Part shown: in pieces, positions 10,340-55,796 of the stretch
Layout: each line of letters begins with the position of its first letter
Position numbering within the stretch: the stretch's first letter is position 1
NCBI GenBank assembly: GCA_963708235.1
Contig: OY970200.1
Coordinates: 3,223,479-3,287,478 of the forward strand
DNA length: 64,000 nt
From: an uncultured Acidimicrobiia bacterium
GTDB lineage: Bacteria > Actinomycetota > Acidimicrobiia > Spongiisociales > UBA5794
Direction: 5' to 3'
Notes under the pieces: generated by a model
The model's input: only the letters and a program-made list of their open reading frames with translations
Databases searched by the model: none
Told to the model about the DNA's origin: nothing
Position numbers and translations under genes: made by a program

Positions 10340-10414
10340 TGTACGTCACGGGCAGTTCCAGTCCCACCACCGGCACCGGCGCACCCACCGCCGACCGGAG
10401 TAACTAGAAATACG

Positions 10415-10443: not shown

Positions 10444-10505
10444 TACGTCCTCAAGGAGAGCTGCTTGCGAGAGCGCTCCGACGTCATCTGCTCTCAGGAG
10501 GTTCC

Positions 10506-16135: not shown

Positions 16136-17460
16136 TGTCAAGTGGGGTTTTCGAGGAGGCGGTAGATGTGGCGGGCGATGTAGCGTTTGAGGCAGCGTCG
16201 GATCTCGGCTGGTTTTTTGCCTTCTGCGGCGCGGCGGGCGGCGTAGGCGCGGGTCTCGGGGTCGTAGCGGAGCCGGCAGAGGACAATGGTGTGGAGTGCC
16301 TGGTTGAGTTGCCGGTCGCCGTAGCGGTTGAGGCGGTGTCGGGTGATGAGCCCGGAGGACGCCTCGATGGGGGCGACCCCGGCAAGGTTCGCGAACGCGG
16401 CTTCGTTTCGGAATCTGCCTGGGTGGGACCAGGCGCACAGGATGATGGCGGCGACGATGGGTCCGACGCCTTGTTCGTTGAGGAGGTCGGGTCGCCACGC
16501 TTTGACGATCTGGTCGATGTGGTGTTGGTGGTTGGCGGCTTCGTTGTCGAGGGTGCGTGCCCGGCGGGCGAGCTGGCGAATGGTGTCGGCAACGATGCGG
16601 GTCTCGTGGCTCCAGGCGGTGCTGGTACGGAGCTTGGCAGCGGTCGTGATCATCCGGGTGGTGGACAGGCCCCGGAAACGGTCCCGGAGTGGTTCGGGGG
16701 CGCCGATGATGATGGCGTGGAGTTGCTGTTTAGCCGTCTTGGCGGCGTCTTTGGCGGAACTGCGGGCAGTGACAAGCACCGCCAACGATGCCCGGTCACC
16801 GTTCAGGTTGCGGGGCTCACCGGGATGTCGACGGGTCAGGGCCTCGCGACCGGAACGCACCGCGTCGATCTCATCGGACTTGGCGCCGTTACGCCGCTTG
16901 GGTCGGGTCGGGCGGTCAACTTCGACGATCCGCTCGCCGCGGGCGAGGAGGTGCCGAGCCAACCCGGCACCGTAACTCCCGGCGCCTTCAATCACCCACA
17001 CCCGTTGGGTGGTAGCGCCGTGACGGTCAGCAACGGTGATCAACTCGTTGTAGCCGCCCGGATCGGCCGGGACCTGCTCGATATCGATTGCTGCACCGGT
17101 ACCAGTGACGAGCACCGCAGCGGTATGGGTATCTCGATGCGTATCGACCGCCACGACGAACTCGTAGTTGTCTGCCAACATGGACATCAGCGTTCCTCCT
17201 CGCCTAGAGCTGGACGTATGGCTCTGGTCCGGTCACAGGGGATCGGCAAGGCTGTGATGAGACACGCCAGGCCAACACCGGGCGGTCAAGCTCCTAATCA
17301 GGCCAGTCACCCCTTGACCGGGCCAGCGCCGATGACACCAAGCGGACATGTCCCCCCAAAGGCACCCCCCAACAGGGAAGGCCAGCGGGGTAAGGGTCAC
17401 ACCCAACGTCATCGACACCAACCCAGTCTCCACCACCGAACCACGAACCGCATCCTCACA
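16136..17460 (-). mobile_element. IS110-family insertion sequence (boundaries approximate; this family lacks terminal inverted repeats)
   Basis: The transposase gene has about 270 bp of non-coding sequence on its 5' side. The element sits between two blocks of the same REP-like repeat family, which is the preferred target type for IS110 elements. Confidence 0.45.
16138..17187 (-). CDS. IS110-family transposase (DEDD recombinase)
   Basis: The 349-aa product has the N-terminal VAVDTHRDTHTAAV (DEDD RuvC-like) motif and the C-terminal GVGPIVAAIIL...FRNEAAFANLAGVAPIEASSG...RLNRYGDRQLNQALH block typical of IS110/IS1111 transposases. Confidence 0.9.
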   Translation of the reverse strand: MSMLADNYEFVVAVDTHRDTHTAAVLVTGTGAAIDIEQVPADPGGYNELITVADRHGATTQRVWVIEGAGSYGAGLARHLLARGERIVEVDRPTRPKRRNGAKSDEIDAVRSGREALTRRHPGEPRNLNGDRASLAVLVTARSSAKDAAKTAKQQLHAIIIGAPEPLRDRFRGLSTTRMITTAAKLRTSTAWSHETRIVADTIRQLARRARTLDNEAANHQHHIDQIVKAWRPDLLNEQGVGPIVAAIILCAWSHPGRFRNEAAFANLAGVAPIEASSGLITRHRLNRYGDRQLNQALHTIVLCRLRYDPETRAYAARRAAEGKKPAEIRRCLKRYIARHIYRLLENPT

Positions 17461-23066: not shown

Positions 23067-23144
23067 GGGGGCGTGGTGAAGTCTGGAGTTCACGCCGGCC
23101 TGTCAAGCCGGAGGTCGCGGGTTCGAATCCCGTCGCTCCCGCCA
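23067..23144 (+). tRNA. tRNA-Asp (anticodon GTC), CCA encoded
   Basis: The manual cloverleaf has acceptor GGGGGCG/CGCTCCC (one G-U), D-stem GTGA/TCAC, anticodon stem CCGGC/GCCGG with loop CTGTCAA, T-arm GCGGG-TTCGAAT-CCCGT, discriminator G, and CCA. Confidence 0.85.
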
Positions 23145-23199
23145 ACCCAACGCCCGGATCTCACGGTCCGGGCGTTGGTCGTACCGGCGAACAATCCCC

Positions 23200-23272
23200 G
23201 GTCAGGTAGCTCAGTTGGTAGAGCGCCGGTCTGAAAAACCGGAGGTCGGCGGTTCGAGACCGCCCCTGACCA
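23200..23272 (+). tRNA. tRNA-Phe (anticodon GAA)
   Basis: GGTCAGGTAGCTCAGTTGGTAGAGC... matches the canonical tRNA-Phe 5' half. The acceptor is GGTCAGG/CCTGACC, the anticodon stem is CCGGT/ACCGG with loop CTGAAAA, the T-arm is GGCGG-TTCGAGA-CCGCC, and the discriminator is A. Confidence 0.9.
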
Positions 23273-23278
23273 CCCCAA

Positions 23279-26568: not shown

Positions 26569-28842
26569 TCATCGCTGAAGGGATCGGGCTGTCGATGGGT
26601 CGCCTGCTCGGCGTCCCTGGCTCGGTCGTCGGGTTTGGTCCATGTCGGTGAGGTGGTAGTTGATCCCGCGTTCGACGGCGGCGGGGTCCCAGTCGATGCG
26701 TTGGGAGATGAGCTCGGCTGCCTGGGCGCGTAGCTGTGGGTCGGTGAGGCCGACGACGATGACGGAGGCGTCGCGGAGGGCGTTCCAGTCGGCTTCGCGG
26801 TCGTTCGAGTCACGCTCGTTGAGGATGTGATCGATGACGTGGAGAGGAAGGGGTGTGGCCTCGGCGAGCGCCTTGCGCAACACGGGAAGCTGTCGGTTGG
26901 CGACGAGATCGGCGGGGTCGCTTCCCGCGGGGAGGGTGGCGACGCGGATGTTGAGGTCGGGGTCGACTTCCTCGGCGAGTTGGTGGACGCGGCGGGCGGC
27001 TTGGGTGCCGGCGTCGTCGCCGTCGAGGGTCAGTGTCACTCGGTGGGTGGTGCGGCGGAGGGTGGCGAGGTGGTGGGTGGTGATGGCGGTGCCGCCGGCA
27101 GCGACGGCGTTGGTGATGCCGGTTTGGTGGAGCGCGATGGCGTCGAGGTAGCCCTCGACGAGGATCGCCTCGCCGGTGTGGACGATGCCGGAGTGGGCGT
27201 GGTGGTGGCCGTAGAGGAGTTCGCTCTTGCGGTAGATGGCGGTGGCCGGCGTGTTGAGGTACTTGGGGCCGTCGCCTTCGATGAGTCTGCCGGCGAACCC
27301 TCTCGGGTGTCCTTGGCGGTCGTGGATGGGGAACACGAGCCGGCCGCGCATGGTGTCGTAGAGCCGTCCGGTTCGTGCCCGGGCGACGACACCGGCAGCG
27401 AGCAGGTCGCTGGGGGTGTACCCGTCGCGTTGGAGGGCATTCGTGATGGTCTGCCAGGAGGGCGGGGCGTAGCCGAGTTGGAATCGCCCGGTGATCTCGT
27501 CGGTGAAGTTCCGCCCTTCAAGATGTTGGCGGGCGGCCTCGCCCTTGGGTCCGCGTAGCCACGTTTGGTAGTGGGTGATGGCGCGGTCGAGGACCTGCTG
27601 GATACGAGCGGTGTCCTGTTGGCGGTCGGCGGTGCCTCGGGGTGGGATACCGCCGGGGATGACATCGGCGGGGTAGGCCATGGCGCCGCCACGGTGGGCG
27701 CGTTCGGCGTGGGTTCCGCAGGCGAGTTCGTAGTAGGCGTTGCCTTGCCTGCCGGGTTCGGCGGGGCCGTCGTAGACGGCGAGGTGGGTGGCGTCGTCGC
27801 CGCAGCTGGCGCAGCCGCCGTCGCGGGTCATGATGCCGGGGTGCCCGGGCGGGTAGATGCTGTACACCGCACCCCGCCGCTGCACCGTGCTCAGCTGGTC
27901 GGCGTCGATCTGTTCTCGCACCACGCCGTGGCCCACGGTCTCGCGTTCGGGGGCGGCGGGTGCGAGTTCGGGTGTGGGTGCTCGTTCGAGGGCGGGAAGA
28001 ATGCCCCGAGCGCAGGTGAGGACCCGCTGCGCGGTCTGGGCGATGAGGTTGGCGTTGCCGTCGGACCAGGTCGCAACGTAGGGGAGGCTGTAGCTGGCGG
28101 TGTCGATCCCGGCCGCGGCGGCAACGATGTAGGCGACGGATTCGGCTTCGACCTCGATGACGCCGCGGCATTCGGGGCGTTGCCCACCGTCCGGGTCGTG
28201 GAGGCGGATGTGGGCCAGTTCGTGGGCGGCGGTCTTGAACCGCTGTGCCCCCGACAGGTCGTCGCGGATGGCGACCTGGCGGCTGTCCCATGTGGTCATG
28301 CCGTTGGCGGTACCGAGACTCGCCGGGTGGACGAGGTCGAGGGTGAACCCTTCGGCGGCGATCAGGGCAGCGAGGGTGTCCCATTGTTGGGGGAGGTCCC
28401 CGACTGCGTGTTGAGGTCGGACTTCGGGGAGGGGTTCGCCGTCTGTCTGGGAGATGTCGAAGACGTGCACGACCCGGAACCCGACCACCCGCCGCTCACT
28501 CTCCTCCTTTGAGTCGGCTCTGGTAGCGGCGGGGGTGTGGTCGGGTTCGAGGTCGGGGGTCTTTCGAATGATCGGTGCCAGGATCGGGATGCCCTTTTCG
28601 CCCTTCCGGACTTGGCGGTCGAGTTCTTGCCATTTGCGGTACCCGGCGACTCGGCTGGGGGTGATGCCGCGGCGATGGGCTTCGATGGCGATGAGCTGGG
28701 CGTTGGCGAACGAGTAGTCGTGGAACTTCGACGCCACCTCGAGCGCGGCGAGCCAGTCCTCTGAGGTGACGAGGGCCCACAGGGATTCCTCGAGCTGGGC
28801 GTGGAGCTGAGCGGCGGCATCTGAACTCTGCATGAGCCGCAC
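26569..28842 (-). CDS. ArdC-like (N-terminal ssDNA-binding domain plus HEXXH metalloprotease) fused to a zinc-finger CHC2 and DnaG-type TOPRIM primase
   Basis: The N-terminus WLAALEVASKFHDYSFANAQLIAIEAHRRGITPSRVAGYRKWQELDRQVRKGEKGIPILAP matches the ArdC N-domain, and HELAHIRLH is an HEXXH motif. The C-terminal half has CASCG...H and GRLVFPIHDRQGHPRGFAGR...KYLNTP...ILVEGYLDAIAL (TOPRIM, EGYxD). Confidence 0.75.
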   Translation of the reverse strand: MRLMQSSDAAAQLHAQLEESLWALVTSEDWLAALEVASKFHDYSFANAQLIAIEAHRRGITPSRVAGYRKWQELDRQVRKGEKGIPILAPIIRKTPDLEPDHTPAATRADSKEESERRVVGFRVVHVFDISQTDGEPLPEVRPQHAVGDLPQQWDTLAALIAAEGFTLDLVHPASLGTANGMTTWDSRQVAIRDDLSGAQRFKTAAHELAHIRLHDPDGGQRPECRGVIEVEAESVAYIVAAAAGIDTASYSLPYVATWSDGNANLIAQTAQRVLTCARGILPALERAPTPELAPAAPERETVGHGVVREQIDADQLSTVQRRGAVYSIYPPGHPGIMTRDGGCASCGDDATHLAVYDGPAEPGRQGNAYYELACGTHAERAHRGGAMAYPADVIPGGIPPRGTADRQQDTARIQQVLDRAITHYQTWLRGPKGEAARQHLEGRNFTDEITGRFQLGYAPPSWQTITNALQRDGYTPSDLLAAGVVARARTGRLYDTMRGRLVFPIHDRQGHPRGFAGRLIEGDGPKYLNTPATAIYRKSELLYGHHHAHSGIVHTGEAILVEGYLDAIALHQTGITNAVAAGGTAITTHHLATLRRTTHRVTLTLDGDDAGTQAARRVHQLAEEVDPDLNIRVATLPAGSDPADLVANRQLPVLRKALAEATPLPLHVIDHILNERDSNDREADWNALRDASVIVVGLTDPQLRAQAAELISQRIDWDPAAVERGINYHLTDMDQTRRPSQGRRAGDPSTARSLQR

Positions 28843-28852
28843 CGTGCCGGAA

Positions 28853-28990
28853 CCCGTTCACCAACCATTGCCACACCTGTTCACCAACGACACACCAACC
28901 CCCATTGCCTCGACCGGGACCGGAAGCCGCCGTGGTGTGTCGTTGGTGTGTGTCTGGTGAGCGATCCGGGCAACGTTTGGTGAACGGCAT
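28853..28990. promoter_or_regulatory. divergent promoter region with four TGGTGAAC-type motifs (two in each orientation) and CGTTGGTGTGTG units; near-identical to the block at 54512-54590
   Basis: GTTCACCAACC occurs at 28855 and GTTCACCAACG at 28879. GTGGTGTGTCGTTGGTGTGTGTCTGGTGAGCG occurs at 28933-28964 and TTTGGTGAACG at 28976. About 30 nt of this is almost identical to CGTTGGTGTGTCGTTGGTGTGTGTTTGGTGAACGG upstream of the relaxase. Confidence 0.5.
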
Positions 28991-28995
28991 CGCTG

Positions 28996-29769
28996 ATGGT
29001 GCCCGCCATGGACGAGACACCCACGACCGAGCGGGCGGTGGACACCGAGCTGGTGCGCCGCATCCAGGCGGACTGGCGACTTCTGGTCGAATCGCGACGG
29101 TTCCGCACCCACCTGAACCGATGGGGTGTCGAGGACCCTCGCCTGGCGTTTCCTCATGGCGACGACCTGGTTGCTGCGGCGCGTCGCCGCGACACCGACG
29201 ATTGGCGCCACCGCGACCAGGCTCTCTCTGCGCTGTTGGCGAGGGTCGGGTCGGATGCGTTGGCGAGGCGGGTGGCGCTGCAGGTAGTGCTCCCCGGTGT
29301 CGTCACCCTCATCGACACGGTGCGGGGTTGGGACATCGAGGAGCGCGCCTCGCGTGTGGTGGCCGAAGCCGTCGAAGTGCTGGAACGGTGTTCCGGCGTC
29401 GAGGCGGGGACTGCTCCGAACTTCCGGGTGTTCGCCAATACCCGCCGTCGGGTCCTGCGGGCAGCGATTCGGGACCGGAACGAACCCGTCACACCTACCG
29501 GTGTCGCGGTCGAGTCGGTCGCTCACGCTGAGCCCGGGGACGGTGACCCGTCGCTGGGGGCTGAGGCGGAGTTGCGGGAGCTCGTCGAGTGGATCAGCAC
29601 CGAAGGCGGGGTGCGCCGTGACGTCGCCGGTGAGGTCGTATTGACCCGCTCCGGCGGGGTCGATGTCGATCACCTGGCGGAGATTCTGGGCGTCTCGGCT
29701 CAGACGCTGCGGCGCCGGCGGCTGCGCACCGAGCAGCGCCTCGCCCGAACTCTGAGCCTCGAACGATGA
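28996..29769 (+). CDS. putative transcriptional regulator with a C-terminal sigma-70 region-4-like HTH
   Basis: The C-terminus VDVDHLAEILGVSAQTLRRRRLRTEQRLARTL resembles sigma-70 region 4 / LuxR-type HTH. The gene is divergent from the primase and adjacent to the TGGTGAAC repeats. The family is not firmly identified. Confidence 0.5.
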   Translation: MVPAMDETPTTERAVDTELVRRIQADWRLLVESRRFRTHLNRWGVEDPRLAFPHGDDLVAAARRRDTDDWRHRDQALSALLARVGSDALARRVALQVVLPGVVTLIDTVRGWDIEERASRVVAEAVEVLERCSGVEAGTAPNFRVFANTRRRVLRAAIRDRNEPVTPTGVAVESVAHAEPGDGDPSLGAEAELRELVEWISTEGGVRRDVAGEVVLTRSGGVDVDHLAEILGVSAQTLRRRRLRTEQRLARTLSLER

Positions 29770-29882
29770 CATCCCAACCAACCCTTCCACCAACGGGTGT
29801 CGCGTGGCGACCGTCGTCGCCGCCCCTTAGAAGGGAAAGAGGGTCAACCACGAACCGATCGACCCAGCAACAGGAGGAGATC

Positions 29883-30197
29883 ATGGTGACGACAACGGCA
29901 ACCCCCCTCGGCGGATGGCCGGTCCTGGGGCCTGTCGAGGGCGAGGACATTCGGTGTGTCCCCTTGGACGAGTTGGACCGGCGGGTCCGTGCCGCTGCGG
30001 AGGTGTGGGAGACACTGGTCGATGAGTGCGCCTCGTCGGGGATGCTGCCGTCACCGCCGGTGGCGTCCCTGCTGACCTCGTTCTTGGAGCGGGACTACTG
30101 GATCGCCGAAGAAGCCCACATCGAAGGCCTCCGACGCCGCACCCACTCCGACCGCACCAGAACCCTGATCGACAACGCGGCGGATGCCCGTGGCTGA
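29883..30197 (+). CDS. hypothetical protein (104 aa)
   Basis: ATG follows AACAGGAGGAGATC. The frame has high GC3. The upstream in-frame Met at 29766 gives a Pro/Arg-rich extension overlapping the previous gene. Confidence 0.5.
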   Translation: MVTTTATPLGGWPVLGPVEGEDIRCVPLDELDRRVRAAAEVWETLVDECASSGMLPSPPVASLLTSFLERDYWIAEEAHIEGLRRRTHSDRTRTLIDNAADARG

Positions 30198-39720: not shown

Positions 39721-41034
39721 TCATTTCCGTCCCGGGGGGGACGACTCGTCCGCTCCCTCCCACGGCGACAGCCCCTCTACTGGCGGCGCGTCGTCCTCAC
39801 TCAGCTCCGCCGATTGTTCTGCGAGCGCGACGCTCCACTCGGCTCTGGCCAACAGCTCGTCGAATGTGATGATCTCGGGTTCGGCGAGCTGGCGTCGGTA
39901 GAGCTCAAACGATCGAACCTTGTCGACGTGATCTCCCCCGCCCTCGCCGATCAGCTGCTTGAGGTTGCCTACGACCAGATACGAGCGGGGCCGTACCAAG
40001 TAGGTGAACTGCCCGGGGATCTCGCTGCCGTCGTCTGCGACGGTGGCTATCCGCTCGCCGATGTGGTGCACGGCTCGATGAACGGTGCCGTGAACCTGTG
40101 CGACCGCTCCGGTCAGCTCGGCTGACGGCGCCCAGCACCCGGAGCGGTACTCCCCACCCGCGAGGAGGTCGGTTCGGTGAGTCTTGATCTCAGCGAGGAC
40201 CATGGACCGGATTCGACCAGTCGTCTGGAGGACCGCATCGGACCGCTTGCCGGCACCGGCAATTGAGGAACCGACAATCACCTGCTCGAGCTTCTGTTCG
40301 TCCCAACCGGTCAGGAACAGGGAGCCGAGGCTGTGGCCGAACACCCAGGGGTTCACCTCGAAGAACCGTTGCCACACGCTCTCCGGCCCGGAAGCTTGCC
40401 TAGCCCGCTCATCGAAGTAGGCATCGTCCTCAAGAAGACAGCGGAACTCGGCTACTGCGAGTCGCCGCGCCTGAAGAGCGATGACATCCCTGGCGTTCTC
40501 GTCGCCTTCGATGAGACGTCGGATCCGATTCTCGTCCGATCGGTAGACGCGCTGGAGGGCAGCCGGGTCGGAGAAGAAGTCCCGCAGGACATCATCATCG
40601 ACGTGCACCGTCTGGCCGCCTTCGACGGCGATCGAGTCGATTGACTTGAGGAGGTCGAGCAACTTGCCGACATCCGGCTGCTTGAGGTTGAGCAGGACTT
40701 GGACAGCTCCGCCCTTGCCGGATCCCGGCACGCGCTGGATCCAGAGTTCCTTGACGTTCCCCGGTTCGCGAGCGACCAGTAACTTGACCTGGTAGCGCCC
40801 GGCCGGCGTCGTACGAATGACCCATTCGGATCCATCATCTGATTGCACAACCTTTGACTCAGAATCCGGATCGAACACCTTGTAGATGAAACGCGCGGGA
40901 GTTCCGTCGTCGGCGGAATTGGTCCGCTTGAGATCGAAGGACCGCGACGCGTAGGTGCGGCTGGCGAGTCGACCCTGTGCGTACGTCGTCTCATCCGCAT
41001 CCTCCTTGGAGTCATCCCCCGACTCGGCAGCCAT
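39721..41034 (-). CDS. PD-(D/E)xK-motif nuclease-like protein, candidate Shedu (SduA/DUF4263)-like effector; last gene of the defence operon
   Basis: 437 aa. GKRSDAVLQTTGRIRSMVLAEIKTH gives D-x15-E-x-K, the spacing of a PD-(D/E)xK core. The N-terminal region is variable and charged. The start codon overlaps the hsdR stop (TGATG). The Shedu assignment is from recalled family architecture, not a search. Confidence 0.45.
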   Translation of the reverse strand: MAAESGDDSKEDADETTYAQGRLASRTYASRSFDLKRTNSADDGTPARFIYKVFDPDSESKVVQSDDGSEWVIRTTPAGRYQVKLLVAREPGNVKELWIQRVPGSGKGGAVQVLLNLKQPDVGKLLDLLKSIDSIAVEGGQTVHVDDDVLRDFFSDPAALQRVYRSDENRIRRLIEGDENARDVIALQARRLAVAEFRCLLEDDAYFDERARQASGPESVWQRFFEVNPWVFGHSLGSLFLTGWDEQKLEQVIVGSSIAGAGKRSDAVLQTTGRIRSMVLAEIKTHRTDLLAGGEYRSGCWAPSAELTGAVAQVHGTVHRAVHHIGERIATVADDGSEIPGQFTYLVRPRSYLVVGNLKQLIGEGGGDHVDKVRSFELYRRQLAEPEIITFDELLARAEWSVALAEQSAELSEDDAPPVEGLSPWEGADESSPPGRK

Positions 41035-44000
41035 CAGCTGAGCCCGAGGAAGCGGTCGAAGAAGTCGCCGAGCTTGGCCAGCACGGTTCCCTTCTTGGCG
41101 GCGTGGCCGCCAGCCTGTCCGAAGCGGGAGACCGGCGGGAGGACCTTGGTGATCGCGGTGCCAGCCGATTGGACTGCACCGTCCCGAAAGGCTGCATCTA
41201 CGAAGTCACGGGTGGCCTCCGGGTCAAGGCCCTCCTCGACGATGATGCGGTCGAGCTCTTCGGCGCGCTTCGCCGCGACGAACGCGGTCCACGCCGCGTC
41301 GACCTCGGCGCTGACGGACAGCGACTCCACGAACGCCTGAATGAGGTCCTTCTTGTTGCGGAGCGAGGGGCTCGAGTCGACGGCCCGATCGATGGCAGCG
41401 CGGATCTCCTTGTCCTCGCCGTCACCCCGCGCATCGCGGTAGCGCTCGACGAGCATCAAGATGTAGTCGACGTTGATCTCGACCTGCTTGATCAGCTCGA
41501 TCTCGAAGACGACCTCCTCGTGGATCGGCTCCTTCTCGGCGTCGCGCTCGGTGCGGAACTCCTGGTACAGGTTGAGGTAGACGCTCTGATAGTCCTGCAT
41601 CTCCCGGGGGGTGAGGATCTCGTTGCCGGCGAAGTCGTCGAAGGAACCGAGGATGTTCCGGAGCCGGAGGATGGCGCCGAACAGCGCGATGAATGCCTTC
41701 TGGGCTGCCTCCCCGACGATGCGCTGCCCGAGGGGGAACCCGGCCTGGAGCTCCGCGACCCGCTCGGCGTACTCGTTGTAGTACTCCGCATATGGCTCGA
41801 GGAGCACGATCCCGCGGGCATCCTCGTTGCCGAACAGCGAAATGGCATCGTTGGTCTCCTGCTCCAGGTCCCGGAAGCTGACAATGTTCCCGAACGTCTT
41901 CACAGAGTTGAGGATCCGGTTCGTCCGTGAGTAGGCCTGGACGAGGCCGTGGGCCCGCAGGTTCTTGTCGACCCAGAGCGTGTTGAGCGTCGTGGCGTCG
42001 AATCCGGTGAGGAACATGTTGACGACGATCACGAGGTCGATCTCGCGGCGCTTGATACGCAGCGACAAGTCCTTGTAGTAGTTCTGGAACTTGTCGGCGG
42101 TCGTGTCGAAGCTGGTGCCGAACAGATCGTTGTAGTCCTCGATGGCGTGATCGAGGAACTCTCGGGCGTCGGCGCCGAGGCCCTCGGTCTCGAACTCCTC
42201 CTCGGGCAGCAGGTCGTCCTCGGCCTCATTGGGGGCGAAGCTGTAGATGAGGCCGACCTTCAGGCGTTGGTCCGACGGGAGGTCCCGTTGCTGGAGGGAG
42301 AACTGGTTGTAGTAGCGTCGGGCAGCGTCGATCGACGCGGTGGCCAGAAGGGAGTTGAAGCCCCGCATGCGCTTGCCGGCAACGCTGTAATGCGAGGCGC
42401 GCTTCGTCTTCTGGTCGAAGTGCTCGCAGATATAGGCGACGATCTGCTCGATGCGCTCAGGCGCCAGCAATGCGCTTTCCCTGTCGATCGCACTGACCTG
42501 CTTGTCGGCGATCGACTCGGGCATCTTCACCGTGTTCACATAGTCGATACGGAACGGCAGCACGTTCTTGTCGGTGATGGCATCGACGATCGTGTAGGTG
42601 TGCAGCTTGTCGCCGAACGCCTGCTCAGTCGTCCGTAGCTGCGGGTTGCCCCCGCTCGCCGAGTTGGCGGCGAAGATCGGCGTGCCGGTGAACCCGAAGA
42701 GGTGGTAGCGGCGGAACGCCTTGGTGATCGCGGTGTGCATGTCGCCGAACTGTGATCGGTGGCACTCGTCGAAGATGATCACCACGTGGCCGTCGTAGAT
42801 CGCGTGGCCCTTGTTGGCGGCGATGAAGGTGCTGAGCTTCTGGATCGTGGTGACGATGATCCGGGCTGCCGGGTCCTCCAGCTGCTGCTTGAGGATACGG
42901 GTCGAGGTGTTGGAGGTGGCCGCTCCCTTCTGGAAGCGGTCGTACTCCTGCATGGTCTGGTAGTCGAGGTCCTTGCGGTCAACCACGAACAGCACCTTCT
43001 CGACCCCGGCGAGCTTGCTGGCGAGCTGGGCAGCCTTGAAGCTGGTGAGCGTCTTGCCGGATCCAGTGGTGTGCCAGACGTAACCGCCGCCGGCGACGGT
43101 GCCCCACCGCTTGTAGTTGGAGGCCACCTCGATGCGTCGCAGGATCTGCTCGCTCGCCACGATCTGGTACGGGCGCATCACCAGCAGCATCTGATCGGCG
43201 GTCAGCACGCAGTACCGGGTGAGGATGTTTAGCAGCGTGTGCTTGGCGAAGAACGTCTTGGCGAAGCCGCTCAGGTCCTCAATCGGCTTGTTCGTGGCGT
43301 CGGCCCACCAGCTCGTGAACGCGAAGCTGTTCGACGTCTTGCGCGCCCGCTTGGCGCCCGCCCGCTCACCGAGGTGCTGGGCCCGGACCGTGTTGCTGTA
43401 GTACTTGGTCAACGTGCCGTTGCTGATCACGAATAGCTGCACGTACTCGAACAGCCCCAACCCGGCCCAGAAGCTGTCGCGCTGGTACCGGTCGATCTGA
43501 TTGAACGCCTCGCGGATGTCGACACCGCGGCGCTTGAGCTCGACATGCACCATCGGTAGGCCGTTGACGAGGACGGTGACGTCGTAGCGGTTCGCGTAGT
43601 TGCCCTCGGTCTCGTACTGGTTGATGACTTGGAGCCGGTTGTTGTGGATGTTCGCCTTGTCGATCAGCACGACGTTCTTGGTCGACCCGTCGTCGCGCCG
43701 CAGGAGCTGGACGTGGTCCTCCTGGATGCGGATCGTCTTCTCGACGACGCCGTCTCTGTCTCCGGCAATCCGCTCACGGAAGAACCGCTCCCATTCGGCG
43801 TCTGAGAACGCGATGCCGTTCAGCGCTTCGAGCTGGACGCGCAGGTTGGTGACGAGACCCTCCTCGCTGGTGAGTGTCAGGTAGTCGTAGGCCTGCTCGC
43901 CGAGGATCTCGATCAGGGCGCGCTCTAGGGCGGCCTCCGACTGGTAGCCGCCTTCTTGCGACGGGTCGGCGACGAACTCGGCGACGACGGTGCTCTCGGA

Positions 44001-44045
44001 GCTGACTGCTATCGGCTCGTAACGAGGGACAGCCCCGTCGGTCAC
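41034..44045 (-). CDS. hsdR: type I restriction enzyme R subunit
   Basis: 1003 aa. The N-terminal nuclease region is followed by SF2 helicase motifs (TGSGKTLTSF, DECHR, FGFTGTPI) and the HsdR C-terminal domain. The stop overlaps the downstream start and the start overlaps the hsdS stop. Confidence 0.9.
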   Translation of the reverse strand: MTDGAVPRYEPIAVSSESTVVAEFVADPSQEGGYQSEAALERALIEILGEQAYDYLTLTSEEGLVTNLRVQLEALNGIAFSDAEWERFFRERIAGDRDGVVEKTIRIQEDHVQLLRRDDGSTKNVVLIDKANIHNNRLQVINQYETEGNYANRYDVTVLVNGLPMVHVELKRRGVDIREAFNQIDRYQRDSFWAGLGLFEYVQLFVISNGTLTKYYSNTVRAQHLGERAGAKRARKTSNSFAFTSWWADATNKPIEDLSGFAKTFFAKHTLLNILTRYCVLTADQMLLVMRPYQIVASEQILRRIEVASNYKRWGTVAGGGYVWHTTGSGKTLTSFKAAQLASKLAGVEKVLFVVDRKDLDYQTMQEYDRFQKGAATSNTSTRILKQQLEDPAARIIVTTIQKLSTFIAANKGHAIYDGHVVIIFDECHRSQFGDMHTAITKAFRRYHLFGFTGTPIFAANSASGGNPQLRTTEQAFGDKLHTYTIVDAITDKNVLPFRIDYVNTVKMPESIADKQVSAIDRESALLAPERIEQIVAYICEHFDQKTKRASHYSVAGKRMRGFNSLLATASIDAARRYYNQFSLQQRDLPSDQRLKVGLIYSFAPNEAEDDLLPEEEFETEGLGADAREFLDHAIEDYNDLFGTSFDTTADKFQNYYKDLSLRIKRREIDLVIVVNMFLTGFDATTLNTLWVDKNLRAHGLVQAYSRTNRILNSVKTFGNIVSFRDLEQETNDAISLFGNEDARGIVLLEPYAEYYNEYAERVAELQAGFPLGQRIVGEAAQKAFIALFGAILRLRNILGSFDDFAGNEILTPREMQDYQSVYLNLYQEFRTERDAEKEPIHEEVVFEIELIKQVEINVDYILMLVERYRDARGDGEDKEIRAAIDRAVDSSPSLRNKKDLIQAFVESLSVSAEVDAAWTAFVAAKRAEELDRIIVEEGLDPEATRDFVDAAFRDGAVQSAGTAITKVLPPVSRFGQAGGHAAKKGTVLAKLGDFFDRFLGLS

Positions 44046-45220: not shown

Positions 45221-46125
45221 GTGAAGAAGTCCTCGTCGATCTCGACGACGCGGTAGGTGCGCTCGACCTGGACGCCGACGCCGTACTCGATCATCAGCTC
45301 GGTGAGCCGCTGACCGTCGATAAGGATGACGCGGGTCGGCACCGATCGTGCGTACTCGACGGCGCCCGGACTGAAACGGCTGGTGGTGATGAACACGCCG
45401 CCGTCGGCCTTGCCGCTGAGTGCTCCGACGAAGCCCTGCACTTCCGGCCGCTGCACGTTGTTGGTCGTTGAGTAGCGCTTCGCCTGGACGTAGACCTTGC
45501 CGAGGCCCAGTACGTCCTGGTCGATCACACCGTCGATGCCGCCGTCGTTGTAGTCGGTGGTGACGCCCCGCCCGCCGGCACCGCCGTAGCCCATAGCGAG
45601 GAGCAGCTTGACCACAGCACTCTCGAAGAACGCTGGGTCCTGCTCGACCAGACGCGACAGCAGCTCGGACGCCACCTCTTCGTGAATGCGAGCAACGCCC
45701 TGCTCGACCTGCTCGGTGGGATCGAGGTTGGTGACCGCCGTGTCGAGTGGCTGGGGCTCCTCTCCGCTCGTCGACGACTTGGAGAGCCACCACTCGTCGC
45801 CTTCCTTGGCGATCGCCCTCAGGTCGTTCTCCGTGATACCGCCTTGGTGTTTCAGCAGCAGCTCCCGTCCGAGGTCGGTGATCACGTACTGGCCGCGACT
45901 CGGCCGGTGCAGCGCGTCGACCCGGTTCAGATACGAGGCAGCCCAGCCAATCCGGTTGTCAGCCCGGCTTTGACCGGAGGGCAGAGTGTCCGCTCGCTGA
46001 TCCGCGGTGAGCCCGACGACGTCGGCCACGTCGAGCCGAAGCTGGCGCAGTGCCCGAGTTGCGCCGTCCGTTAGTACGGTCAGGATCGGGACGGTGAACC
46101 CCTCCCAGGTCGGCATGTCGCTCAT
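45217..46125 (-). CDS. mrr: Mrr-like (type IV, modification-dependent) restriction endonuclease: Mrr_N winged helix plus Mrr catalytic domain
   Basis: The N-terminus WEGFTVPILTVLTDG...IGWAASYLNRVDAL is Mrr_N-like. The C-terminal core is GGIDGVIDQD...VYVQAKRY...VFITTSRFS (PD-(D/E)xK of the Mrr_cat family). ATGA overlap with hsdM. Confidence 0.75.
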   Translation of the reverse strand: MSDMPTWEGFTVPILTVLTDGATRALRQLRLDVADVVGLTADQRADTLPSGQSRADNRIGWAASYLNRVDALHRPSRGQYVITDLGRELLLKHQGGITENDLRAIAKEGDEWWLSKSSTSGEEPQPLDTAVTNLDPTEQVEQGVARIHEEVASELLSRLVEQDPAFFESAVVKLLLAMGYGGAGGRGVTTDYNDGGIDGVIDQDVLGLGKVYVQAKRYSTTNNVQRPEVQGFVGALSGKADGGVFITTSRFSPGAVEYARSVPTRVILIDGQRLTELMIEYGVGVQVERTYRVVEIDEDFFT

Positions 46126-51156: not shown

Positions 51157-54063
51157 TCACCTGCCACGCGTCAACCCTGCCGCATGGTCGTGCGTCCCGA
51201 GTTCCAGGCGCCGCGCGGCAGCTCGCCCTGCGGCGATGCGCTTCGCTTCGTTCTCGCCAACAACATTGGTCAACGTCCCCGCTGCCGCCGGAGACGAGTC
51301 GGCAATCGCAGGAACCGGGTCTCGTCTACGTTCCGTCTCCTGTGGGCGCCGTGTAGAGACGTTCTTCAGAGGATCCGGACGGCGCGGCAGCTCGTGGCCA
51401 GTGAGTTGTGGTCGCCCACCGGTGTCGATCGCGGCGGTTTGGCGTTCTGTGCGATCGAGCGCGGTATCAAGACGCCGCGTCTCTCCTGGTCGGTTGTGGG
51501 TGATGTGACCACAGTCGTCGTCGACCGCAGGGCTGACAAGGTAGATAGTGGTCGCTTCGCGGCCACGGCTCATGGCCACGTAGCTCCACTCCCGGGTGAT
51601 TGCGTCGGACGCGACGACGAATGCCCGGTTGATGGTCAGGCCCTGGGCCTTGTGGCCGGTGATGGCGTAGCCGTGGTTGAGGTAGCCAGAAGCGATGTAC
51701 CAGGCGGGGAGATGGACTGTCTCGTCGTGGCGGTCGAGACTCACAGTGAGCGTGCGGTGATGTGAGTCGGCAGCGATGACTGTGCCGAGGTCGCCGTTGA
51801 GGACCCCGATCCTGGACTGGTTTTTGAGGCACATGATCCGGTCGCCGGGTTGGTAGACCCGACCACTCGCCTCGATGCCGGGGCCACCGATACTCCCGGC
51901 GGCGATGGTGAGGTCGCGGGCTCGGCGGTTGAGTTCATCGACGGTGGCGCTGTGGTGGGCGATGAGCAGTGCGCCGCGGGCGTCGCCGGTGATATCGACG
52001 TAGGTGCGCCAGTCGGCGACAGCCCGGTCGAGGGTGGCGGAAGACGTGGCCTCGATTACGACGCGGCTTCTCTGTAGGTAGTCAGCTACTGCACGCGCTA
52101 CGGAACCGTGGCGAAGTTCAGCGAGGGTACGGCGTTCCCATTCCTCGGCTTGGCGGATGTTCTCGGTGAGTTGGGTCGAGGGGAGCCGGTTGGCAAGCGC
52201 GGTGAACAGTCCCCCGGCGTCGATCTCGGCGAGCTGGTGGTCGTCGCCGGTCAAGATGAGCTTGCCTTCAGCTGCCTCTGTGAGTTTGGCGAGGCGGGCG
52301 AGTTGGCGCGTGCCGACCATGCCGGCTTCGTCGACGACGAGGACGGTGCCGTGTTGGAGGCCGCCCTCGCGTTGGCTCTCGCCGAGGAGTCGGGTGATGG
52401 TGTACGAGGGGATGCCGGAGTCGGTCTGGAGTTCGGCGGCGGCCCGGCCGGAGAGGGCGGTGCCGATGATGGGGGTGTTGGTGGCGTCGGAGAGTTCGCG
52501 GATGGCTTCCATGACAGTGGTCTTGCCGGAGCCGGCGACGCCGATGGCTACGTCGATGGCGTTGCCGGACGCGGTGAGGTGGTGCACCGCTCTGGTCTGG
52601 TCGTCGGTGAGGTGGGGTCGGTCGGCGACGGCTTGCTCGACGAGTCGCACGGGGGGTGTGAAGCGGCCGGCGCCGACGCCTTCGAGGGCGGTGGTGATGG
52701 TGGTGTGTTCTGTGATAAGGAGTTCGGCGGTGGTGTAGCGGCGTTCGTGGGCGAGTCCGGGGTGGAAGGTTCGGTCGCCGCGTCGCATCGGGGGTGTGCC
52801 GGCGTGCGGCTCTAGGTGTTGTTCGAGGATCTCACGTTGCTCGTCGGTGATGCCGTCGATGTCGCCGAGCCGGCGACGGTCGCTTCCGGTGGGCAGGATG
52901 GGCACGACATCGGGTGTGGTGAGGAACTGGCGGGCACGGTCTTCGATCTGTTGCCGGGTGCCGCCTTCGGGGAGGGCGCTGGCGATGTGCTCGACGACTT
53001 CTCCCTTGCCGAACGTGGAACGAGTCTTGGTGAGGCCTTCTGGTGCTGCCATGTCGGTGAACAGCTCCTCGATGTCGGGGAGCTGGATGTCGTGGCTGGG
53101 GCCGATGATGGAGGCGATGTGTTCGGGGGTGATCCCGACAGCGGCGGCTCGTCGCTGCCATTCGGGCATGAGGGTGTCGACGGGGTGGTCGGTCTTGGCG
53201 CGGCGGGTGGCGAGGGTGGCCGCTTCGTACGCCGCAGCAGATGGGGTGAGTCCCTCGGCCTCGACCCAGGCTTCGATTTGTTGGCGGCGGCGGGAGAACT
53301 CTTCGATCTGGCGGCGGGTGAATCCTGCGATGTCGGCCATGCCCTTGTGGACGGGTTGCCATTGGACGCCGAGGCGTTCGGTGAGCTGGCAGCGCAGTTC
53401 GGCTTCGTGGATGGCGCTGGTGTCCTTCTGGTGCCGGTACAGAAGCTGCCCGTCGACGGCCCGCCACTTCCCGTCGAGGCCCTTGACGCGGTTGGCGACG
53501 ACGACGTGGGTATGGAGCTGAGGGTCGTTCTCTCGGCTGGTGAACTCGGTGAACGACGCCGCCAGGTACCCGTGGGTGGGGATGGGCCACGTCTCGGTGC
53601 GCAGCTTCGGTTTCCCGTCCTCACCGAGCACCGGTTCGCCGTTGTCGTCGAGGACCGGTCGCCGTTCGGCGCCCCGGGTCGACGAGGCGACGGATTCGAG
53701 GTAGGCGAGAGCGGATTCGGTGGCGGCCGCGAACGCCTCCATGACCTGCTCGCGGATCTCGGGTGTGCCGAACGCCCACAGCAGCGACACGGATTTGTCA
53801 GCGGAGAAGGTGATGTCCCACGCGGCCACGCCATCCTTCCGGAGCCGCCTGCCGAGCTGTTGGCCTGTGGCGGGGTGGAGACCGTCGAAGAGGCGGACGA
53901 GGCCCTCGGTAGAGACGACGCCGTCAAGACCTACCTCGGCGGCTCCGCCTCCGCGCCACATGCCCGTGGCGGTGCCGCCGCGGAGGTAGTAGTCCTCCCG
54001 CGGTGACAGCTCGTGGAGCTTCTGGAGGTAGTAGTCCTTCGCCGCCTTCGCCAGGCTGATCAT
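51157..54063 (-). CDS. MobF-family conjugative relaxase (TrwC/TraA-like): N-terminal relaxase plus C-terminal RecD-like helicase
   Basis: The start is set at MISLAKAAKDYYLQKLHELSPREDYYLRGG (TrwC-like N-terminus), and the His triad is LHTHVVVANRV. The C-terminal half has Walker A GVAGSGKTT and Walker B VLVVDEAGMV. The 72 upstream codons in the track ORF are His/Pro/Arg junk. Confidence 0.85.
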   Translation of the reverse strand: MISLAKAAKDYYLQKLHELSPREDYYLRGGTATGMWRGGGAAEVGLDGVVSTEGLVRLFDGLHPATGQQLGRRLRKDGVAAWDITFSADKSVSLLWAFGTPEIREQVMEAFAAATESALAYLESVASSTRGAERRPVLDDNGEPVLGEDGKPKLRTETWPIPTHGYLAASFTEFTSRENDPQLHTHVVVANRVKGLDGKWRAVDGQLLYRHQKDTSAIHEAELRCQLTERLGVQWQPVHKGMADIAGFTRRQIEEFSRRRQQIEAWVEAEGLTPSAAAYEAATLATRRAKTDHPVDTLMPEWQRRAAAVGITPEHIASIIGPSHDIQLPDIEELFTDMAAPEGLTKTRSTFGKGEVVEHIASALPEGGTRQQIEDRARQFLTTPDVVPILPTGSDRRRLGDIDGITDEQREILEQHLEPHAGTPPMRRGDRTFHPGLAHERRYTTAELLITEHTTITTALEGVGAGRFTPPVRLVEQAVADRPHLTDDQTRAVHHLTASGNAIDVAIGVAGSGKTTVMEAIRELSDATNTPIIGTALSGRAAAELQTDSGIPSYTITRLLGESQREGGLQHGTVLVVDEAGMVGTRQLARLAKLTEAAEGKLILTGDDHQLAEIDAGGLFTALANRLPSTQLTENIRQAEEWERRTLAELRHGSVARAVADYLQRSRVVIEATSSATLDRAVADWRTYVDITGDARGALLIAHHSATVDELNRRARDLTIAAGSIGGPGIEASGRVYQPGDRIMCLKNQSRIGVLNGDLGTVIAADSHHRTLTVSLDRHDETVHLPAWYIASGYLNHGYAITGHKAQGLTINRAFVVASDAITREWSYVAMSRGREATTIYLVSPAVDDDCGHITHNRPGETRRLDTALDRTERQTAAIDTGGRPQLTGHELPRRPDPLKNVSTRRPQETERRRDPVPAIADSSPAAAGTLTNVVGENEAKRIAAGRAAARRLELGTHDHAAGLTRGR

Positions 54064-54119
54064 CGCCGACCACCCCACAGTCGCCGCGGCTCCCGGCCGG
54101 TTCCCATCGCTGCTGGTGT

Positions 54120-54590
54120 GTGGCTGGTGAACCGGTGCGCAACTTGTTGCAGGGGCGTGTGTGGAAAACGCCCTTGTGGTGCGTGGATGGTGAACGCGTC
54201 CGGGGGGTCTCCTCGGTGCACCGTGGTGATCGGGGTGGTGTGATCGGTCATGAGGGCGAGAATGCGGTGACGCGTTCACCAGATGCGCACCAGATCAGTG
54301 ATTCCTGGGAGAAATTCAGCCCACGGGGTCTGTATCTGGGCGGATTCGGCCGGTGATTGCTCCCCAGGCCCCCGCTGATCCCACCCCGGTCGATGGACGT
54401 CGAACCGATACCCGGCGGCGGACGCCTCGACCCCGCCTGGCCACCGCTCCGGCCCGGATCTCCCGGATCGTCTTGTGTGTCAACGGATTCGGCCCGACGA
54501 CCGGGCACCGTGGTGTGTGTTTGGTGAACGGTTGGTGCGTCGTTGGTGCGTCGTTGGTGTGTCGTTGGTGTGTGTTTGGTGAACGGCCCG
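54120..54590. promoter_or_regulatory. relaxase upstream region with four direct TGGTGAAC motifs and four tandem CGTTGGTG(C/T)GT units; candidate oriT and/or regulator binding array
   Basis: GGCTGGTGAACCGG occurs at about 54123, GGATGGTGAACGCG at about 54187, TTTGGTGAACGG at 54520, and CGTTGGTGCGTCGTTGGTGCGTCGTTGGTGTGTCGTTGGTGTGTGTTTGGTGAACGG at 54532-54588. The region lies between the divergent relaxase and lipoprotein genes. Confidence 0.5.
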
Positions 54591-54749
54591 GGCCACGGTG
54601 AACCCTGCTGCCGAGGCCGACAGGGGCCGGGGCGACCCAGGAGGGGCACGAGGATGAACGGATTTCGCGGATCGGACCTCTTCACCCGTAGGGCCGCGGG
54701 GCGTAGGGTGAGAGGTTCAGTGACGGACGCGGAATGCGAGGGGTACACC

Positions 54750-55796
54750 ATGAACCCCAATCGACACTCCAGGGGGGTCCGGGGGGACTGGTTCATCCGT
54801 GTGTTGTTCGTCGCCGTCACCGTTGCGCTAGTCGCCGCCTGCAACGGGTCCGTCCCCTCCACGACCTCGACCACGACCTCGTCGACGCCTCCAACCTCAA
54901 CGACCCCGGCCTCGACGACGACCAGGCTGCCGGCATCCACGACCACATCCATGGTTCCTGCGACGACCGAGCCGGTGCCTCCCGACGAGGCAGTCGAGGA
55001 GGCGTGGCTCGAGTTCTGGGATGCGTGGGTCGCAGTCCGAGCGAGCGACCCGCTCGATGCCGCACCCTTGGAAGCGGTCGCCTCTCCACAGGTGGTGGAC
55101 GCGGCCGTGACATTGTTCGAGCGGGACCGGGACTCGAACCCGACCGGTGTGGCGACCGACGTGTTCGCCAGCGCAACCGTGGTCGAGATGGCGGCCGACG
55201 CTGCGGCTGTCGAGGACTGCGTCGTGCTGGCACCGAGCTTCACCAACACCGGAGGCATCCGGTACGAGGCCGACCTCCGGCCCAGTGACGGTGGATGGGT
55301 GGTCACCGATCTCCGTATCCGCTCCGCCGGCGGCTGCGTTCCATCCGAGTTCGAGTCGGCAGCGATTGCCGGCTACGAGGCCTACTACGAGGCCGTCGCA
55401 GAGTTCTGGGATCCGCCGGATCCGTCGAGCCCGCTGATCGACGAGGTCCTCGTTGATCCTCGTCGCAGCAGCATCGTCGCCCTGCTGGAGGAGCATGCGG
55501 ATCGCGGCGTCGCCTTCCGCAGTGATCCCACTACCCACCCCGAAGTGATCGAGGTACGAAGCACGACCGAGGTCGTGATCCTCGACTGCTACGAACCTGC
55601 CGCAACAGATGGTGTCTTCGACCTCGAAACAGGAGAACGCCTCCCCGACGAACCCGCGATCCGAGACGGTCAACGCAACCTCAGGTCGGCCGTGATGATC
55701 TTGGATGAGGGACGGTGGAAGGCATCGGACTTCCAAGGACAAGTTGACTTCACATGCGAGTTCGCACCTACCAATCGAGGCTTGCCCTCCGTCTGA
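54750..55796 (+). CDS. lipoprotein (lipobox LVAAC) with a Thr/Ser/Pro-rich linker; first gene of the Tad-containing plus-strand block
   Basis: ATG after GCGAGGGGTACACC. The signal is MNPNRHSRGVRGDWFIRVLFVAVTVALVAAC, followed by TTSTTTSSTPPTSTTPASTTT and a globular domain with no recognised family. Confidence 0.6.
   Translation: MNPNRHSRGVRGDWFIRVLFVAVTVALVAACNGSVPSTTSTTTSSTPPTSTTPASTTTRLPASTTTSMVPATTEPVPPDEAVEEAWLEFWDAWVAVRASDPLDAAPLEAVASPQVVDAAVTLFERDRDSNPTGVATDVFASATVVEMAADAAAVEDCVVLAPSFTNTGGIRYEADLRPSDGGWVVTDLRIRSAGGCVPSEFESAAIAGYEAYYEAVAEFWDPPDPSSPLIDEVLVDPRRSSIVALLEEHADRGVAFRSDPTTHPEVIEVRSTTEVVILDCYEPAATDGVFDLETGERLPDEPAIRDGQRNLRSAVMILDEGRWKASDFQGQVDFTCEFAPTNRGLPSV

Follow-up and report, generated by a model that had tools for sequence, protein, structure and literature searches.

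The core operons of an integrated conjugative element carried by an uncultured Acidimicrobiia bacterium are preceded by copies of one bipartite direct repeat, which probably serves as an element-specific, activator-type promoter box and co-regulates these operons. Its geometry is that of promoters activated by Streptomyces antibiotic regulatory proteins (SARP) or containing a −26 element. The element was analyzed within a 64,000-nucleotide stretch of contig OY970200.1 (assembly GCA_963708235.1, positions 3,223,479 to 3,287,478; hereafter the window, the numbering of which is used below), where it extends from ~26.5 kb to the window end and encodes a type IV secretion system (T4SS) of the Gram-positive type. 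The boxes are found at four promoters: those of the primase gene (P_pri), of the gene for a sigma factor-like protein that heads the T4SS operon (P_sig), of the relaxase gene, reached through a short upstream open reading frame (uORF; P_rel), and of an operon that starts with a lipoprotein-like gene and continues into a Tad pilus cluster (P_tad). The coordinates of all features are listed in Table 1.

That the intergenic regions of the primase and relaxase genes share a repeat had been proposed in an initial annotation of the window, and this repeat is genuine. The window contains 13 copies of the word TGGTGAAC where 2.06 are expected, and none of 100 shuffles reached this count; the 19-nt unit TGGTGYGNNNNTGGTGAAC, with two or fewer mismatches, is present in seven copies against 0.40 expected; a composition effect is thereby excluded. 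The related word CGTTGGTGYGT has four copies against 0.17 expected. Eight of the 13 TGGTGAAC copies and all seven full units lie within the primase/sigma-like and relaxase/Tad intergenic regions, and the 23 kb of chromosome included in the window contain no full unit. The block shared by the two loci also stands, at a length of 31 nt (28933–28963 versus 54555–54585, 29 of 31 positions identical), but the repeated unit is not an element of ~35 bp as had been thought. It is a bipartite direct repeat, TGGTGYGTnnnTGGTGAAC, composed of two 11-bp halves with TGGTG in common, and its half-sites, A (TGGTGYGT) and B (TGGTGAAC), are consistently non-identical.

The arrangement of the copies differs between the two loci. 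On the primase side, the unit copies point away from a perfect inverted repeat of 16 nt (28882–97/28933–48). On the relaxase side, the feature that had been placed at 54512–54588 spans 54114–54599, includes units at 54114, 54177 and 54274, and contains four copies of TGGTGAAC on the plus strand and one on the minus strand; all of this falls within the non-coding region 54064–54653. One part of it, at 54511–54584 on the plus strand, consists of seven half-sites in exact 11-bp phase, in the order A B A A A A B. Further unit copies upstream of the core promoters are phased by 11 or 23 bp. A distant blastn comparison of the relaxase upstream region with PLSDB plasmids returned no match, a scan of viral contigs for the 19-nt unit returned 44 lone, scattered matches, which by our estimate is about chance for a database of that size, and no clustered locus, and Rfam recognized no RNA family in the element except two tRNAs.

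The position of the boxes with respect to start codons is fixed. The pattern TGGTGAAC, 9 nt, NANNNT, 7 nt, ATG (searched as TGGTGAAC-N10-A-N3-T-N7-ATG) has three copies in the window against 0.00 expected, and these stand before the primase and sigma-like genes and before the leaderless uORF to which the relaxase gene is coupled. At P_tad, ahead of the Tad operon, the spacing between box and hexamer is the same as at the other three. The starts at ATG 28833 and ATG 29008 are fixed by homologous N-termini, with no evident Shine-Dalgarno sequence upstream, and no sigma-70 consensus promoter is found in either intergenic region. We infer that the hexamers CACGGT, GATGGT and CATTCT are weak −10 elements and that the ATG codons at 28833, 29008 and 54251 are leaderless starts; from such starts it follows that the proximal B box would lie at about −30 to −23 and the A box at about −41 to −34. 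Within the subfamily to which the window belongs, A2 and T6 of the hexamer are invariant in 12 of 12 promoters, and its first position is never T. Measured start to start, the distance to the hexamer is 17 bp for the B box (16 in relatives) and 28 bp for the A box (27 in relatives). Two other ways of reading the boxes were considered. As a classical −35 element of the ...AAC type recognized by extracytoplasmic function (ECF) sigma factors, TGGTGAAC was rejected, since no −10 lies at 16–17 nt and the start codons are too close; a sigma-54-like −24/−12 reading of the 11-bp halves was set aside because the protein encoded next to them belongs to the sigma-70 family and because the hexamer and the leaderless spacing fit a −10.

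The same architecture recurs, with other words, in related elements. For comparison, 57 metagenome loci were retrieved through the sigma-like protein family, and nearly all of them have two to three tandem bipartite units, 23 bp apart, directly upstream of the sigma-like gene. The commonest unit in these relatives is TGAnACTCnnnTGAnAGGG; other box words are TGGCAGAC, GTCAACTC, TGGAGC and TGGGAGGG, and close relatives whose hosts are similar have at least eight different words between them. The closest relatives with a divergently transcribed primase gene have TGGGAACC (L066), TGGCAACC (L010) and TGGCAAGG (L067), and in all three the box is separated by 9 nt from the hexamer and the hexamer by 7 nt from the start codons of both the primase and the sigma-like genes, as in the window. 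In L062, the relaxase of which is 71% identical to that of the window, the box word is the window's own TGGTGAAC, found at the relaxase promoter, beside the box resembling an origin of transfer (oriT) described below, and in a divergent array. The P_rel unit is the positional homologue of the relaxase-upstream box in L062 and in L001/L002. Single units (box, 8 nt, NANNNT, 6–7 nt, ATG) stand before excisionase-type HTH_17 genes in L002 and L061 and before an integrase gene in L048, and others of matching geometry precede the relaxase-upstream uORFs of L001, L060, L061, L063 and L065. More than 50 related elements have the succession of box, 8–9 nt, −10-like hexamer, 6–7 nt and start codon, with differing box words, before the sigma-like, primase, relaxase, xis or int genes; box and −10 are 9 bp apart in the subfamily of the window, compared with 8 bp in the majority class. 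Over the related loci, 33 of the 111 majority-class B boxes have NANNNT at a distance of 8 nt and ATG or GTG another 6–7 nt downstream, against a background of 0.2%. This comparison indicates that a promoter box shared by the family, of which the window repeat is one 'dialect', marks essentially all core operons.

Two further observations concern the sigma-like genes of these relatives. Most of them (L007, L012, L019, L035 and others; for example, L012:9940–9985) have a conserved hairpin, CTCTCGTG...CACGAGAG, in the 5′ untranslated region ~60 nt upstream of the sigma-like gene. The 3′ arm of the hairpin overlaps the ribosome-binding site (GGAG), and GTG forms the start of the predicted transcript; no such hairpin is present in the window or in L010, L066 and L067, where the sigma-like gene appears to be leaderless. 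In addition, a single 50-kb contig (L042/L044) carries two sigma-like genes with different dialects (TGACA... and TGAGA...) as well as a truncated third copy with its own box (L044:4747–4765), an arrangement that may represent tandem or nested elements.

The gene immediately behind the P_sig boxes, annotated initially as that of a helix-turn-helix (HTH) protein at 28996–29769, is real, but it starts at ATG 29008, and its product is an ECF-like member of the sigma-70 family and not a plain HTH protein. It has more than 110 homologues at 50–66% identity, several of which are labelled sigma-24 by their sources, and their alignment reveals a region-2.4-like motif (FRxYANTRRRVLRAAxRD) and a region-4-like HTH (...PQTLRQRRLRAEQRLR). 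An AlphaFold model of the protein has a pLDDT of 83, and the top matches of this model in a Foldseek search of the PDB are all ECF sigma factors (sigmaE, AlgU, SigL, SigH, SigW and SigK), with probabilities of ~1.0 and otherwise weak scores (E = 3e-3 to 5e-2, TM 0.2–0.3), the E-values being weak because the domain arrangement differs. In Pfam, the window protein has only sub-threshold matches to generic HTH families and does not pass the thresholds of the curated sigma families; among its relatives, 19 of 29 have weak matches to Sigma70_r4_2 or Sigma70_ECF (best E = 1.9e-5). We thus regard the product as sigma-like by its modelled fold and as a candidate sigma factor with putative binding to the RNA polymerase core. 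In all longer relatives, its gene is the first of a syntenic T4SS operon. A sigma-like protein, Orf7, is also encoded by Tn916-type elements. A minus-strand open reading frame (ORF) at 28858–29793 (311 codons, with high GC content at third codon positions) would span both the repeats and the sigma-like gene; with no homologues, no Pfam match and a low-complexity product, as against more than 110 homologues of the plus-strand ORF, it was dismissed as an antisense artefact of high GC content. The conserved acidic protein of 104 amino acids encoded next in the operon is a possible partner or anti-sigma factor of the sigma-like protein; as a reader of the DNA boxes it was rejected, being an acidic hairpin without a DNA-binding fold or an informative match in Pfam or the PDB.

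On this basis, the following mechanism can be proposed. The unit would cover approximately −41 to −23 and take the place of a −35 element. A DNA-binding factor encoded by the element would bind the boxes along a single face of the helix, with cooperativity in the arrays, and, once bound, would recruit or adapt RNA polymerase in the manner of SARP, PhoB or PafBC. The primase, sigma-like/T4SS, relaxase (through its coupled uORF) and lipoprotein/Tad pilus operons would switch on together, and the multi-copy boxes ahead of the sigma-like gene would provide positive feedback; the circuit is probably self-reinforcing, because the sigma-like gene sits behind the richest box set in every relative. Coordination of primase and relaxase by an element-encoded regulator that binds the repeats, as suggested in the initial annotation, is thus supported by the fixed distance at four promoters and by the recurrence of the architecture in relatives, the reader itself being putative. 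The leading candidate for this reader, put forward tentatively, is the ECF-sigma-like protein, alone or with a partner: no other protein of the conserved module is a candidate for DNA binding, its gene invariably comes directly after the boxes, and the operons marked by the boxes form a regulon of the kind that an ECF motif would define.

The known systems most similar to the boxes agree with them in some features and differ in others. In SARP boxes, direct repeats are spaced by 11 or 22 bp, and the 3′ one is separated by 8 bp from a suboptimal −10, which in the afsS promoter is CACTGT (PMC10936776). The afs box bound by AfsR at that Streptomyces promoter likewise consists of two 11-bp direct repeats in a 22-bp box centred at about −30; its 3′ repeat and the weak −10 are 8 bp apart, compared with 8–9 bp here, the −35 is poor or absent, and extra repeats are located 11 or 22 bp away, compared with 11 or 22–23 bp here. 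Both the 11-bp (or 22-bp) periodicity and the 8–10 bp between the 3′ repeat and the putative −10 that characterize SARP and PhoB boxes are thus found in the element, whereas an OmpR-type winged-helix protein is not found in the window. The differences from SARP are that no OmpR-type/BTAD protein is encoded in the visible element, that the A and B halves are consistently non-identical, and that boxes of the window type mark the conjugation operons of a mobile element and change their word from one element to another. PafBC-dependent promoters have a −26 element (−23 to −28) and a −10 but no −35 (PMC8635444). This mycobacterial system of 'sigma adaptation' resembles the present one as an actinobacterial hybrid promoter, with the window B box at about −30 to −23 and no −35; here, however, the scanned proteins include no WYL-domain HTH activator, a second half-site and tandem arrays are present, and the word is element-specific, unlike the PafBC word, which is conserved across Actinobacteria. 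With autoregulated ECF regulons, the element shares a two-domain sigma-70-family protein encoded right behind its putative target motif and the presence of this motif upstream of other operons. Boxes precede the sigma-like gene not only in the window but also in more than 40 of its relatives. The element differs from ECF regulons in that the window boxes lack the −35/−10 separation of ~16–17 bp, the motif is a tandem direct repeat, and changes of the box word are not accompanied by changes of the sigma-4 helix. A single repeat also serves several promoters in conjugative plasmids: the iterons of ArdK, StbA, TrwA and KorA in R388, the KorA and KorB operators of RP4, and the omega heptads of pSM19035. 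There, too, replication or establishment and transfer operons are co-regulated through direct or inverted arrays, some of them by oriT; these repeats are mostly repressor operators read by ribbon-helix-helix (RHH) or HTH proteins, in contrast to the element described here, with its fixed activator-type geometry, its apparently leaderless promoters and no visible candidate for DNA binding other than the sigma-like protein.

Several points weigh against the boxes being activator sites, or against the sigma-like protein as their reader. Neither half-site lies at the canonical −35 distance of sigma factors (~22–23 bp start to start), and a box overlapping the −35 is equally compatible with repression. 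Many of the 33 majority-class B boxes with the downstream geometry are homologous copies of one promoter and not independent. The sigma-4 recognition helix (PQTLRQRRLRAE) is near-invariant across elements with very different box words, and no column of the sigma-like alignment tracks the C, G and A classes of boxes, the columns of highest mutual information being high-entropy linker positions; together, these two results weaken the case for the sigma-like protein as the specificity reader. No OmpR/SARP (Trans_reg_C, BTAD), WYL or RHH protein is found among the scanned proteins, which are those of the window and thus of the visible part of the element, its right end and the rest of the genome lying outside. 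Finally, two units downstream of P_rel that have no −10 (sites 1 and 2, below) would be explained more easily by a repressor or accessory protein that binds on its own than by a sigma factor.

These two units flank the predicted oriT, which is distinct from the repeats. The relaxase ORF, listed from 54279, actually begins at ATG 54063 and thus has an upstream region of ~590 bp. A box of the form GCAACT-N1-2-GTTGCA-NN-(T/G)GCGTGTG(G/T) occurs in nine of nine relaxase loci (the window, L001, L002 and L060–L065), whatever their box word; each locus has a single copy, in every case on the strand opposite to that of the relaxase gene. The oriT core of plasmid F, GCAAAAACTTGTTTTTGCGTGGGGTGT/GGTGC (the slash marking nic), contains an inverted repeat, with nic 27 nt into the published 49-mer (PMC3074121; PMC5422253). 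The two have in common an inverted repeat of the form GCAA..C-TT-G..TTGC, followed after ~9–10 nt by GTGT/GG(TG), and their location on the strand opposite the relaxase gene, and L065 matches F in 11 of 12 bases around nic. They differ in the stem, which is 5 bp in the window box and 8 bp in F, and in that the window box comes from an actinobacterial host with a Gram-positive-type T4SS and has a nic predicted from sequence. By this likeness, 54139–54164 is the predicted nic region, with nic at ~54160–54163; from the strand on which the box lies it follows that the relaxase gene would be transferred last. The F sequence just 3′ of nic (GGTGCTTTTGGTGGTGAGAACC) also resembles TGGTGCGTGGATGGTGAAC, the site 2 unit located 13–16 nt 3′ of the predicted nic, which may be a coincidence.

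Sites 1 and 2 have no NANNNT at promoter distance. In L062, one B box flanks the oriT box, and in L001, L002, L060, L063, L064 and L065 there are no units beside it; any relaxosome role of sites 1 and 2 is therefore lineage-specific at most. A secondary, relaxosome-accessory role is possible, in which the sites may couple the factor that reads the boxes to relaxosome assembly or damp relaxase transcription. The uORF that crosses the oriT box has equivalents ending 3–6 nt past the relaxase start in L062, L001, L060, L061 and L065. The oriT box is translated in one common frame (HTHLQPVA or HTPLQQVA) in the window, L062, L060, L061 and L065, and the L001 peptide diverges after HTH (HTHVQHSC). 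Judging from the sequences, this arrangement suggests translational coupling of the relaxase.

The alternatives to an activator box differ chiefly in what would bind the repeats. The boxes could be operators of a global repressor encoded by the element (similar to KorA/KorB, ArdK or ImmR) that covers the −35 and silences the four operons, the units downstream of P_rel acting as roadblocks or looping partners. Conjugative elements are usually kept off by repressors, the boxes overlap the −35 region of every promoter, the inverted-repeat pairs at 28882–97/28933–48 and 54177–200/54269–92 would be able to loop, and the orphan units are located between about +55 and +137 relative to P_rel. We nevertheless consider this explanation unlikely. 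Promoters without a −35 or a sigma-70 consensus, and with weak −10 elements that never start with T, are typical of activator dependence; an exact distance of 8–9 bp from box to −10, as kept by more than 50 elements, is characteristic of activators in contact with RNA polymerase, whereas a repressor needs overlap only, and no repressor-type HTH gene is found in the visible part of the element. That the arrays might instead be relaxase or relaxosome-accessory sites defining oriT, as the initial annotation had envisaged, with the copy at the primase locus as a second such site, is improbable. Accessory proteins such as TraY and TrwA do both regulate promoters and bind oriT, the largest cluster is upstream of the relaxase gene, two units flank the predicted nic region within 6–16 nt, and the F sequence 3′ of nic is loosely unit-like. 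However, box words are wholly different among elements with 58–71% identical relaxases, whereas the inverted repeat with GCGTGTG is invariant, which implies that the relaxase reads the inverted-repeat box and not the repeats; moreover, repeats stand at a fixed promoter distance before primase, sigma, xis and int genes far from relaxases, and six relatives have none by the oriT box.

Control by the host appears very improbable. In this case, the boxes would be sites of a response regulator of the OmpR/PhoB family, and conjugation would depend on a signal of the host, for example phosphate: 11-bp direct repeats with the reverse complement GTTCACC look similar to actinobacterial PHO boxes, GTTCACC being the core of the PhoP direct-repeat unit of Streptomyces, and 11-bp direct repeats 8–10 bp from a −10 are the classic layout of PhoB and SARP boxes. 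The variety of box words among close relatives from similar hosts points instead to a co-evolving reader encoded by the elements, the chromosomal part of the window contains no full unit, and no response regulator or pst/pho gene is found in the window. Least probable of all, to an extreme degree, is that the arrays are replication iterons or a centromere (similar to parC or stbDR) maintaining the excised element. Seven direct repeats in 11-bp phase, like the phased direct repeats of R1 parC and R388 stbDR, and a set adjoining the primase gene would suit this function. Yet the iteron reading that accompanied the initial annotation is not supported in the sense of replication, with no Rep initiator found in Pfam scans of the element proteins and, at a GC content of 0.66 in both repeat-bearing intergenic regions, no AT-rich region for unwinding. 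No partition NTPase/adaptor operon adjoins the arrays either; the genes downstream of the seven-half-site array encode a lipoprotein and the Tad pilus, the other copies are single promoter boxes, and the relatives have single units at promoter distance before xis, int and relaxase genes.

Table 1. Positions of the repeat units, putative promoters and genes of the element (window coordinates)
Feature	Position	Strand	Remarks
Full 19-nt units	28879–97, 28944–62, 54114–32, 54177–95, 54274–92, 54511–29, 54566–84	−, +, +, +, −, +, +	
P_pri proximal B box, TGGTGAAC	28856..28863	−	Then 9 nt, CACGGT, 7 nt, ATG 28833
P_pri putative −10-like hexamer, CACGGT	28841..28846	−	Identical hexamer at the equivalent place in L010
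Distal full unit, TGGTGTGTCGTTGGTGAAC	28879..28897	−	23 bp upstream of the proximal P_pri box
A half-site (28933–40) and full unit TGGTGTGTGTCTGGTGAGC (28944–62)	28933..28962	+	Upstream of the sigma-like gene; 28933–48 is the right arm of the perfect 16-nt inverted repeat
P_sig proximal B box, TGGTGAAC	28978..28985	+	Then 9 nt, GATGGT (28995–29000), 7 nt, ATG 29008
P_rel unit, TGGTGCGCATCTGGTGAAC	54274..54292	−	Then 9 nt, CATTCT (54264–54259), 7 nt, ATG 54251
Seven-half-site array	54511..54584	+	Last B box TGGTGAAC (54577–84) is the proximal box of P_tad
P_tad −10-like hexamer, CACGGT	54594..54599	+	9 nt after the B box; spacing and hexamer match P_pri
P_tad downstream features	Predicted transcription start ~54607; ribosome-binding site GGAGG 54640; ATG 54654	+	
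Orphan unit 'site 1', TGGTGTGTGGCTGGTGAAC	54114..54132	+	6 nt before the oriT-like inverted repeat; B box kept in L062
Predicted oriT core, GCAACTTGTTGCAGGGGCGTGTGTGG	54139..54164	+	Inverted repeat GCAACTTGTTGC, then AGGGGCGTGTGTGG; predicted nic ~54160–54163
Orphan unit 'site 2', TGGTGCGTGGATGGTGAAC	54177..54195	+	Inverted repeat with the P_rel unit over 24 nt (83%)
Leaderless 63-codon uORF	54060..54251	−	Begins at the predicted relaxase transcription start, crosses the oriT box; TGA overlaps the relaxase ATG (ATGA)
ArdC-N/DnaG-type primase fusion	26569..28833	−	Pfam; start MQSSDAAAQLH fixed by the N-termini of L010 and L066
Divergent ECF-sigma-like protein	29008..29769	+	Sigma-2 and sigma-4 domains, ~50-amino acid N-terminal extension; first gene of the T4SS operon
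Acidic two-helix-hairpin protein, 104 amino acids, conserved	29883..30197	+	Long ORF from 29766; ATGA overlap with the sigma-like stop codon
MOBF (TrwC/TraI-type) relaxase-helicase	51157..54063	−	True start MISLAKAAKDYY
Lipoprotein-like gene, first in the Tad operon	54654..55796	+	
Tad/Flp pilus cluster inside the element	54654–62607	+	CpaF-like ATPase 57901–59367, TadB/C, TadE, TadG-like

The window has a GC content of ~0.61–0.71 per kb. Its first 23 kb carry housekeeping genes and an IS110-family transposase gene; this chromosomal part also includes a tandem pair of paralogous X-Pro dipeptidyl-peptidases (S15), the pair and the transposase being located at 8357–12434 and 16138–17187. The left flank of the element is formed by tRNA-Asp and tRNA-Phe genes (23067–23274) with no adjacent integrase gene, and four ORFs without a family match lie between the tRNAs and the primase gene. 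A second copy of the tRNA-Phe 3′ end, sought as an attachment-site repeat, is not present in the window, and the right boundary of the element therefore lies outside it. Pfam confirmed the gene context proposed initially, namely a primase that is an ArdC-DnaG fusion and a TrwC relaxase. In addition to the ArdC-N/DnaG primase and the TrwC/MOBF relaxase-helicase, the element encodes TcpC-like, TcpE-like and VirB4-like proteins, an M23/SLT hydrolase and a VirD4-type coupling protein. Between the T4SS operon and the relaxase gene, at 39721–50419, lies a defence cargo island with Shedu (SduA_C), HsdR, two HsdM, two HsdS, Mrr and an NYN-domain protein, that is, two sets of type I restriction-modification genes, in a region of lower GC content (0.61–0.65). 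Tad-like genes occur in L010/L025 as well, and the Tad/Flp cluster may be the mating-pair device of this T4SS family.

Little appears to be known about how T4SS-type conjugative elements of Actinobacteria are regulated; our literature search found catalogues of such elements and nothing on their control. That a conjugative element can use one repeat at several of its promoters is known, as are SARP and −26-type geometries in Actinobacteria. The family-wide combination of an element-specific box, putatively leaderless promoters and an ECF-like protein heading the T4SS operon appears to be undescribed, our full-text literature search having returned nothing on it. The locus provides a testable map of four promoters with a common box, a possible master regulator, an oriT of F type and its nic, both predicted, and a relaxase coupled to a uORF. 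More speculatively, widespread T4SS elements of actinobacteria, largely of the Acidimicrobiia type, could possibly run a private transcription programme, in which an ECF-like sigma factor with an extra N-terminal domain would read a bipartite repeat at about −37/−26 together with a CACGGT-type −10 and direct the synthesis of leaderless mRNAs, and in which the box words would have diversified into orthogonal 'promoter dialects' that prevent cross-activation of co-resident elements. Should the reader prove to be the sigma-like protein, it would represent a sigma factor with an unusual promoter geometry. If the box words are truly element-specific, they would constitute natural orthogonal pairs of promoters and factors, make cross-talk between elements predictable, and offer a sequence signature for the core promoters of uncultured elements.

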